Shown: positions 45,554 through 47,819 of the stretch, piece after piece
How the letters are laid out: every line of letters starts with the position of its first letter
Position numbering within the stretch: the first letter of the stretch is position 1
IMG/VR virus record: IMGVR_UViG_2534681833_000010
Origin: a virus
Lineage: Duplodnaviria; Heunggongvirae; Uroviricota; Caudoviricetes
Strand: one strand, 5' to 3'
Length of the DNA stretch: 47,819 nucleotides
The notes under the pieces: model-generated
What the model was told of the DNA's origin: nothing
The model's database searches: none
Seen by the model: only the letters and a program-made list of their open reading frames with translations
Position numbers and translations under genes: made by a program

Positions 45554-46477
45554 GTGCTAATGTCTGCATCCCCTCTTGAATCCATGCCAAATTCCCTTAG
45601 TGCAGAACAAGCTGTACTTGGTGGCTTAATGCTTGATAACTGCCGCTGGGATGAAGTTGCAGATCGTATAGTTGCTGATGATTTTTTTACCAGTGCTCAT
45701 CGTGAAATTTTCAGTGAGATGGAGAGGTTATTAAGTCATGGCAAACCGATTGATTTGATAACACTTGCTGAAGCACTTGAACAGAACGGTAAATTAGAAC
45801 GCGCCGGTGGTTTTGCGTACCTTGCGGAGATGTCAAAGAACACGCCCAGCGCGGCAAATATTTGTGCTTATGCGGATATCGTTCGTGAACGCGCGGTTGT
45901 TCGTGAAATGATTTCCGTCGCAAATGAAATAGCCGAAGCTGGATATGCGCAGGATGGCAGGGGCAGCAATGAATTGCTGGATATGGCCGAGCGCCGCGTT
46001 TTTGAAATAGCTGAAAAACGACAAAAGAGCGGTAGTGGTCCAAAAGATATCGCCAGCATTCTCGATGCAACGGTATCTCGCATAGAAGAGTTGTTTCAGC
46101 GACCGCATGATGGTGTAACGGGGCTTGATACCGGATTTACCGATCTCAATAAGAAGACGGCAGGACTTCAGGCGTCCGATCTCATTATTGTCGCCGCCCG
46201 CCCATCGATGGGGAAGACTACGTTTGCGATGAATCTCGTCGAAAATGCCGCAGTCCGTAACGATAAGCCCGTATTGGTTTTTAGCCTTGAGATGCCGAGC
46301 CACCAGCTGATGATGCGCTCACTGGCTTCTCTTGCACGCGTTGATCAGACTCGTATTCGAACAGGGCAACTTAACGACGAGGATTGGGCGCGGGTTTCTG
46401 GCGCAATGGGGATTCTGTTGGACAAGCAGAATATTTTTATTGATGACTCAAGCGCCCTGACACCTACAGAGCTCTGA
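45554..46477 (+). pseudogene. ban: DnaB-like replicative helicase Ban, truncated after about 305 codons by IS10
   Basis: Colinear with DnaB through Walker A (ARPSMGKTTFA) to ..IDDSSALTPTE, then stop supplied by the IS10 terminus; likely true start ATG at 45560; 14-codon upstream ORF ends in TAATG at the start. Confidence 0.75.
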
Positions 46478-47803
46478 TGAATCCCCTAATGATTTTGGTA
46501 AAAATCATTAAGTTAAGGTGGATACACATCTTGTCATATGATCAAATGGTTTCGCGAAAAATCAATAATCAGACAACAAGATGTGCGAACTCGATATTTT
46601 ACACGACTCTCTTTACCAATTCTGCCCCGAATTACACTTAAAACGACTCAACAGCTTAACGTTGGCTTGCCACGCATTACTTGACTGTAAAACTCTCACT
46701 CTTACCGAACTTGGCCGTAACCTGCCAACCAAAGCGAGAACAAAACATAACATCAAACGAATCGACCGATTGTTAGGTAATCGTCACCTCCACAAAGAGC
46801 GACTCGCTGTATACCGTTGGCATGCTAGCTTTATCTGTTCGGGCAATACGATGCCCATTGTACTTGTTGACTGGTCTGATATTCGTGAGCAAAAACGACT
46901 TATGGTATTGCGAGCTTCAGTCGCACTACACGGTCGTTCTGTTACTCTTTATGAGAAAGCGTTCCCGCTTTCAGAGCAATGTTCAAAGAAAGCTCATGAC
47001 CAATTTCTAGCCGACCTTGCGAGCATTCTACCGAGTAACACCACACCGCTCATTGTCAGTGATGCTGGCTTTAAAGTGCCATGGTATAAATCCGTTGAGA
47101 AGCTGGGTTGGTACTGGTTAAGTCGAGTAAGAGGAAAAGTACAATATGCAGACCTAGGAGCGGAAAACTGGAAACCTATCAGCAACTTACATGATATGTC
47201 ATCTAGTCACTCAAAGACTTTAGGCTATAAGAGGCTGACTAAAAGCAATCCAATCTCATGCCAAATTCTATTGTATAAATCTCGCTCTAAAGGCCGAAAA
47301 AATCAGCGCTCGACACGGACTCATTGTCACCACCCGTCACCTAAAATCTACTCAGCGTCGGCAAAGGAGCCATGGGTTCTAGCAACTAACTTACCTGTTG
47401 AAATTCGAACACCCAAACAACTTGTTAATATCTATTCGAAGCGAATGCAGATTGAAGAAACCTTCCGAGACTTGAAAAGTCCTGCCTACGGACTAGGCCT
47501 ACGCCATAGCCGAACGAGCAGCTCAGAGCGTTTTGATATCATGCTGCTAATCGCCCTGATGCTTCAACTAACATGTTGGCTTGCGGGCGTTCATGCTCAG
47601 AAACAAGGTTGGGACAAGCACTTCCAGGCTAACACAGTCAGAAATCGAAACGTACTCTCAACAGTTCGCTTAGGCATGGAAGTTTTGCGGCATTCTGGCT
47701 ACACAATAACAAGGGAAGACTTACTCGTGGCTGCAACCCTACTAGCTCAAAATTTATTCACACATGGTTACGCTTTGGGGGAAATTATGAGGGGATCTCT
47801 CAG
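46474..47803 (+). mobile_element. IS10 (Tn10-type, IS4 family)
   Basis: Outside end CTGATGAATCCCCTAATGATTTTGGTAAAAATCATTAAG at 46474; inside end ..GGGGATCTCTCAG ending 47803; no matching 9-bp target duplication. Confidence 0.85.
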
Positions 47804-47819
47804 TGCTCAGCATGTTTGA
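46581..47819 (+). CDS. IS10 transposase (C-terminus altered and extended to window end)
   Basis: MCELDILHDSLYQFCPELHLKRL... recognised as IS10 transposase; run of five G at 47776-47781 where four are recalled shifts the frame at the C-terminus (..GYALGEIMRGSLSAQHV). Confidence 0.8.
   Translation: MCELDILHDSLYQFCPELHLKRLNSLTLACHALLDCKTLTLTELGRNLPTKARTKHNIKRIDRLLGNRHLHKERLAVYRWHASFICSGNTMPIVLVDWSDIREQKRLMVLRASVALHGRSVTLYEKAFPLSEQCSKKAHDQFLADLASILPSNTTPLIVSDAGFKVPWYKSVEKLGWYWLSRVRGKVQYADLGAENWKPISNLHDMSSSHSKTLGYKRLTKSNPISCQILLYKSRSKGRKNQRSTRTHCHHPSPKIYSASAKEPWVLATNLPVEIRTPKQLVNIYSKRMQIEETFRDLKSPAYGLGLRHSRTSSSERFDIMLLIALMLQLTCWLAGVHAQKQGWDKHFQANTVRNRNVLSTVRLGMEVLRHSGYTITREDLLVAATLLAQNLFTHGYALGEIMRGSLSAQHV

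Follow-up and report, generated by a model that had tools for sequence, protein, structure and literature searches.

The IS10 element that cuts ban in this DNA is, judged from the sequences, the product of a simple insertion with a normal 9-bp target duplication, and the transposase neither deleted nor inverted any part of ban. The second copy of the duplication does not appear in the window (the whole stretch of 47,819 nucleotides analysed here), most likely because of the way in which the contig was constructed rather than the way in which IS10 transposed. From the unmatched flanks, the original prediction had argued against a simple insertion and for either one arm of a composite Tn10-type transposon or an IS10-mediated deletion or inversion.

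The interrupted ban gene and its target duplication

An exact-protein look-up of the 412-residue transposase identified the window as positions 2-47820 of contig AIGE01000007.1 in assembly GCA_000249775.2. The window is a collinear segment of a P1-family phage-plasmid, running from sit, tail-fibre genes and darA through rep/par, dmt and tRNA genes to ban, and is 97-98% identical overall to P1, P7 and RCS47. A complete plasmid of the same lineage with an intact ban gene is NZ_CP122822.1 (L057; strain ETEC1731, plasmid unnamed6; 99,950 bp; pig, Belgium), whose sequence upstream of ban is 100% identical to the window across 10 kb, and which has no indels relative to the P1 part of the window in 16 kb. 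One of its genes, intact in the window, is broken by an IS91-family insertion (locus 7565-8752). Upstream of ban, the window has three phage-borne tRNA genes (42840-42993 and 45199-45274), with Asn-GTT, Thr-TGT and a CAT anticodon, a set typical of P1-family genomes; the tRNA with the CAT anticodon is annotated as Met in RCS47 and as Ile in the ETEC1731 plasmid.

Table 1. Features at the right end of the window
Feature	Position	Strand	Basis
ban 5' two-thirds (P1-family DnaB-like helicase), codons 1-304 plus 2 nt	45560..46473	+	RCS47/P1 homology
Left copy of the 9-bp target duplication, TACAGAGCT	46465..46473	+	Second copy after the inside end in L020, L021, L022 and L023
IS10, 1330 bp, IS10-Left sequence type	46474..47803	+	Exact end matches
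IS10 transposase ORF, 412 aa as read	46581..47819	+	ORF list; Pfam DDE_Tnp_1, E = 1.6e-24
Run of five G (four in references), probable single-base miscall	47777..47781	+	Both Tn10 arms, AIGE01000043.1
First 16 bp of Tn10 interior at the IS10-Left inside end (LysR-family gene remnant, upstream of gltS); not ban	47804..47819	+	Identity to XL1-Blue F' Tn10

The homology to ban, 99.5% at the nucleotide level to dnaB/ban of RCS47 and 97% to ban of P1, halts exactly at the left end of IS10. The gene also has the neighbours common to the P1-family ban genes of RCS47, P7 and P1, namely the tRNA genes, an SPFH gene and dbn (the last being downstream, on contig AIGE01000043.1). It differs in being broken after codon 304 of the 454 that encode full-length Ban, whereas the otherwise identical sister plasmid NZ_CP122822.1 is intact. 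The called ORF extends to 46477 and ends in ...ALTPTEL*, its terminal Leu codon being composed of CT from ban and C from IS10, and its TGA stop of IS10 bases 2-4. The stop is thus supplied by IS10, as had been predicted, although the predicted end at ..TPTE was one residue short. By Pfam, truncated Ban contains a complete DnaB N-terminal domain and only positions 1-117 of the 255 in the DnaB_C profile, and we take the interrupted ban to be a truncated gene that is not predicted to encode a functional DnaB-like helicase. In a dnaB+ host, ban is dispensable for P1, so the plasmid-prophage would survive the insertion. Textbook precedents exist for Tn10, for IS10 insertions that duplicate 9 bp, and for P1-family plasmids whose accessory genes are interrupted, and an IS10 in a dispensable gene of a phage-plasmid is a known kind of event.

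Both terminal 23-mers of IS10 (IS4 family) matched exactly, the outside end at 46474-46496 on the + strand and the inside end at 47781-47803 on the - strand, and each occurred once in the window, with none expected by chance. These matches bear out the predicted IS10 with its outside end on the left, cutting ban. The element further resembles IS10 in its DDE_Tnp_1 transposase, and its target has an AGC half-site of GCTNAGC; PGAP annotates IS10 as 'IS4-like element ISVsa5 family'.

The 9 bp to the left of the element are TACAGAGCT, the 16 bp to its right (47804-47819) are TGCTCAGCATGTTTGA, and the left flank is not repeated on the right. Uninterrupted ban in RCS47 goes on as TCGTTCCCGC, which TGCTCAGCATGTTTGA does not match; both the mismatch of the flanks and the absence of ban on the right had therefore been correctly read. 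To locate the missing part of the gene, fusion ORFs were modelled for outside-end and inside-end junctions carrying the duplication, and were looked up by exact sequence. The inside-end fusion ORF, MRGSLS+TELRSRARR... (IS10 inside end, duplication and ban 3'), was present in the protein collection. On AIGE01000043.1 (L022), a contig of the same assembly, 246 bp of IS10 tail with four G are followed by TACAGAGCT, by TCGTTCC... (the rest of ban), and by dbn and tail genes. A 9-bp duplicate followed by ban 3' is what an ordinary insertion leaves behind, and the claim that this was not a simple insertion does not survive it: once AIGE01000043.1 is taken into account, the IS10 has its 9-bp target duplication. 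A homology search with the Ban C-terminus returned generic fragment clusters only.

The empty site can be rebuilt from the two contigs. RCS47 and the ETEC1731 plasmid, in which ban is uninterrupted, each have a single TACAGAGCT within the gene. When the 5' part of ban from the window was joined to AIGE01000043.1 and one 9-mer was removed, the product aligned to intact NZ_CP122822.1 over 8991 bp with no mismatches; the only differences were three 1-nt insertions, all within the AIGE01000043.1 part. Because the two halves rebuild the intact site without a mismatch, nothing of ban was deleted or inverted. In two other samples (L020 and L021), ban 5', a 1329-bp IS10, TACAGAGCT, ban 3' and dbn are continuous, and the sequence from a third (L023) begins at the IS10 outside end and has the same junction from IS10 through TACAGAGCT to ban 3'. 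In the lineage of the window, the junction of the inside end with TACAGAGCT and ban 3' was found on AIGE01000043.1 only, the continuous examples having other backbones and another IS10 variant.

The right flank and the join to Tn10

TGCTCAGCATGTTTGA is identical to the interior of Tn10 of the XL1-Blue F' (NZ_CP132549) beside the inside end of the gltS-side arm. Beyond the window, AIGE01000007.1 goes on for 4.3 kb through the LysR remnant, gltS, jemA-C, tetR and the first 96 codons of tet(B), where the contig ends; it is 99.9% identical to XL1-Blue Tn10 across 5702 bp. The search for tet genes past position 47819, which had been proposed as a check, was thus positive for tetR and the start of tet(B), and the 16-bp flank together with the 4.3 kb corresponds to the interior of Tn10 (IS10-Left - gltS/jemABC/tetR/tet(B)/tetC/tetD - IS10-Right).

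The arm that adjoins gltS/jemA is presumably the IS10-Left of the standard Tn10 map. The IS10 of the window agrees with this arm of the XL1-Blue F' Tn10 at all ten sites that separate Left from Right, its sole difference being an extra G. Alignment to IS10-Right, which had been proposed as the reference, gave 11 differences.

A solo IS10 in the chromosome of an O111:H11 strain, NZ_CP077491.1 (L056, locus 310-1638), is 100% identical to the IS10-Left arm of Tn10 and, save for the extra G, to the IS10 of the window; at least 40 places in that genome match IS10. From these copies, the IS10-Left sequence type is a common and mobile natural variant that is not specific to Tn10. The sequence type might be taken as evidence for a Tn10 arm, a reading that we reject in view of the identical solo chromosomal copy. 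The solo IS10 sits in a prophage tail gene with the duplication TACAGAGCA, which is identical to the ban target at 8 of 9 positions.

The first nine bases of the right flank, TGCTCAGCA (window 47804-47812; L001 11337-11345), lie in the truncated LysR-family gene and are a perfect NGCTNAGCN hotspot. The hotspot fit that had been proposed for this flank is therefore real; the hotspot-like sequence is what normally adjoins IS10-Left within Tn10. It has the appearance of a remnant left by the IS10 insertion from which Tn10 originally arose.

At least three kinds of junction are present in this genome: ban 5' with the outside end, the inside end with ban 3', and the inside end with the Tn10 interior. 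AIGE01000007.1 joins the first to the third across the 1.3-kb IS10. We infer that this pairing was probably the choice of the assembler, which would have left the repeated IS10 into Tn10; because the IS10-Left type is not specific to Tn10, the copy in ban and the Tn10 arm could have been indistinguishable to it. The sequence of events would then be as follows. A single IS10 entered codon 305 of ban in a P1-like phage-plasmid, presumably by ordinary cut-and-paste transposition, its DDE transposase cutting the target with a 9-bp stagger at TACAGAGCT, which fits one half of the GCTNAGC consensus. This insertion strips the C-terminal half of the ATPase domain from the helicase. The second TACAGAGCT and the 3' third of ban persist elsewhere in the assembly, on AIGE01000043.1, where they adjoin an IS10 inside end. 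The strain also has Tn10, whose IS10-Left matches the ban copy in sequence, and most likely the assembler, threading an IS10 repeat that reads could not span, entered from ban and exited into the Tn10 interior. Two observations count against an assembler join. Assemblers usually break contigs at unresolvable repeats, and this contig runs from unique DNA through a complete IS10 into unique DNA again, for which linking evidence could have existed; moreover, as the indel-free P1 part shows, the contig is not uniformly error-prone.

If the join were real, homologous recombination between the IS10 in ban and IS10-Left of Tn10 would have followed a simple insertion and rearranged or fused replicons, producing a cointegrate if Tn10 was on another replicon, or, if Tn10 lay at a second site of the plasmid itself, an isomer with an inversion or deletion. 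In the DNA itself, the 5' part of ban would then lead into IS10 and the tet(B) region, and the 3' part would lie after another IS10 copy. Such recombination predicts exactly the three junctions found, is in keeping with a contig that was built straight through the repeat, and is compatible with two distinct loci whose inside-end copies differ in having five or four G. However, a plain genome with three IS10 copies gives the same set of junctions, so nothing specifically favours recombination, and recombinants between IS10 copies are reversible and usually minority forms. In addition, neither a record spanning the ban-IS10 junction nor a fusion of P1 with Tn10 was found among complete E. coli genomes, PLSDB plasmids and IMG/VR contigs. 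We regard a real rearrangement as possible, though rather unlikely.

Transposition of the whole of Tn10 into ban, with the window showing its IS10-Left arm, was the first of the two predicted alternatives. The contig does have an IS10 identical to IS10-Left in type, the outside end directed towards ban, and the Tn10 interior next to it, and to this extent the prediction of a composite Tn10 arm was apt. A complete Tn10 would require the outside end of IS10-Right at TACAGAGCT and ban 3', where the same assembly has an inside end; ban is not flanked by two outside ends, and since its 3' part adjoins the inside end with the duplication, Tn10 did not insert in ban as a unit. The predicted fusion proteins of outside end and ban 3' were absent from the protein collection: a search with nine predicted proteins and their forms truncated at contig edges found only ban fragments with internal starts and the inside-end fusion. 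Similarly, contigs with ban 3' fragments of 132 and 134 aa had no outside-end junction, and represented frameshifted ban, contig edges or other insertions, and the Tn10-type right junction (outside end, TACAGAGCT and ban 3') had no match as DNA in IMG/VR. Insertion of Tn10 as a unit is thus highly improbable. The second alternative, an adjacent deletion or inversion by the transposase of IS10 or Tn10 that took or flipped ban 3', would explain why no duplication is visible within the window, but is scarcely tenable, as ban 3' is present in normal P1 order with dbn and tail genes beside the matching 9-bp duplicate, the right flank is the native Tn10 neighbour of the IS10-Left inside end rather than a new target junction, and the empty site is reconstructed exactly.

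The contig therefore carries a caution, in that assembly through a multi-copy IS can mispair flanks and so mimic a transposon arm or an IS-mediated deletion.

The fifth G at the end of the transposase gene

The IS10 of the window is 1330 rather than 1329 bp long. The additional base, a fifth G, puts the last two codons of the transposase out of frame and is probably an error. The normal frame of 402 residues, ending in ...ALGKL, would terminate at the stop at 47788-47790, and it is because of the extra G that the ORF as read runs to 412 residues and ends in ...ALGEIMRGSLSAQHV. Both arms of the XL1-Blue Tn10, as well as the IS10 tail of AIGE01000043.1, have four G, the number that had been given in the original prediction. 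The altered C-terminus that it described is present in the ORF as read, but probably reflects a base call and not biology.

We infer that the fifth G is most likely a base-call error or single-base indel of the draft assembly. If the IS10-Left copy of Tn10 in this strain instead truly had five G, the transposase would have a 12-residue tail, EIMRGSLSAQHV, in place of KL. Several observations are in line with such an allele: the P1 region of the window has no indels relative to the sister plasmid; the four-G copy on AIGE01000043.1 belongs to a different locus; and 26 nt separate the G run from the inside end, so that reads covering it and continuing into TGCTCAGCATG can be specific to the Tn10 copy. 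Against it, the exact 412-residue product is on record on one contig only, AIGE01000007.1, and a 34-mer with five G had no match in genome_contigs (species-representative genomes) or viral_contigs (IMG/VR), whereas the four-G version matched 32 loci. The same contig (L004) has two more length differences from XL1-Blue Tn10, namely an extra T in tet(B) at about 16597, 12 nt before the contig end, which is a frameshift if real, and one A fewer in an A run of the gltS-jemA spacer at about 14060. Furthermore, AIGE01000043.1 contains three single-T insertions and no substitutions relative to the ETEC1731 plasmid (at about 2904, 4508 and 4522), which split conserved P1 tail genes (338 aa and 242 aa) into two calls each; these insertions are a signature of indel errors in this draft assembly. 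A real five-G allele is therefore unlikely, and one extra base in a homopolymer is enough to mimic an altered transposase.

Repeated insertion at codon 305 of ban

When compared with NGCTNAGCN, the ban target TACAGAGCT has one perfect half-site (AGC) and one poor half-site (ACA in place of GCT). IS10 occupies this site in at least three instances, which include both orientations and different backbones, and it occupies the near-identical TACAGAGCA in the O111:H11 chromosome. Truncated Ban of 305 aa was found on 11 contigs. Among the places listed, four from other sequencing runs share with the window both its outside-end junction and, with 0-1 SNP in 2-8 kb, its backbone.

In one Logan contig (L007; SRR13145243, contig 125), the backbone is 100% identical to the window over 4346 bp, and at about position 4346 ban 5' breaks off at the very nucleotide used in the window but meets the inside end of IS10 (CTGAGAGATCCCC...), so that the element lies in the opposite orientation. 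This orientation cannot arise by homologous recombination and implies either that IS10 inserted independently at this site or that it flipped in an unexplained manner. L020 and L021 (both at 8689-10017) and L023 (1-1329) carry IS10 at the identical ban site and in the same orientation as the window, with the TACAGAGCT duplication. The backbones of L020 and L021 are P1-like and diverged, with 96-99% identity to the window, and their element is a variant of the IS10-Right type that has six further changes near the inside end (IS positions 1249-1300). These three insertions suggest either that the target is used recurrently or that the interrupted allele has been exchanged. Taken together, the orientation in L007, and the diverged backbones and different IS10 variant in L020 and L021, indicate that the site was hit repeatedly.

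Should codon 305 of ban truly be a site where IS10 inserts recurrently in natural P1-family plasmids, this hotspot would have been struck in both orientations on at least three backbones. That this should hold and, at the same time, that the join of ban 5' to Tn10 should be physically real is a doubtful combination; if it did hold, a P1-like phage-plasmid would have recombined via IS10 with a Tn10 replicon, and a transducing phage-plasmid would thereby have gained tet(B) or been fused to it. The repeated and independent use of the same nucleotide position in ban by IS10 is of minor interest and carries little wider biological weight.

Elements other than IS10 also interrupt ban close to this position. 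In L059 (locus 1-30) and L067 (locus 1-25), the interruption lies within 25 bp of the IS10 site. In one of these samples, an element end, which we take to be an IS1 inverted repeat, lies in ban 25 bp upstream of the IS10 site, and in the other, a different sequence joins ban no more than 3 nt from it.
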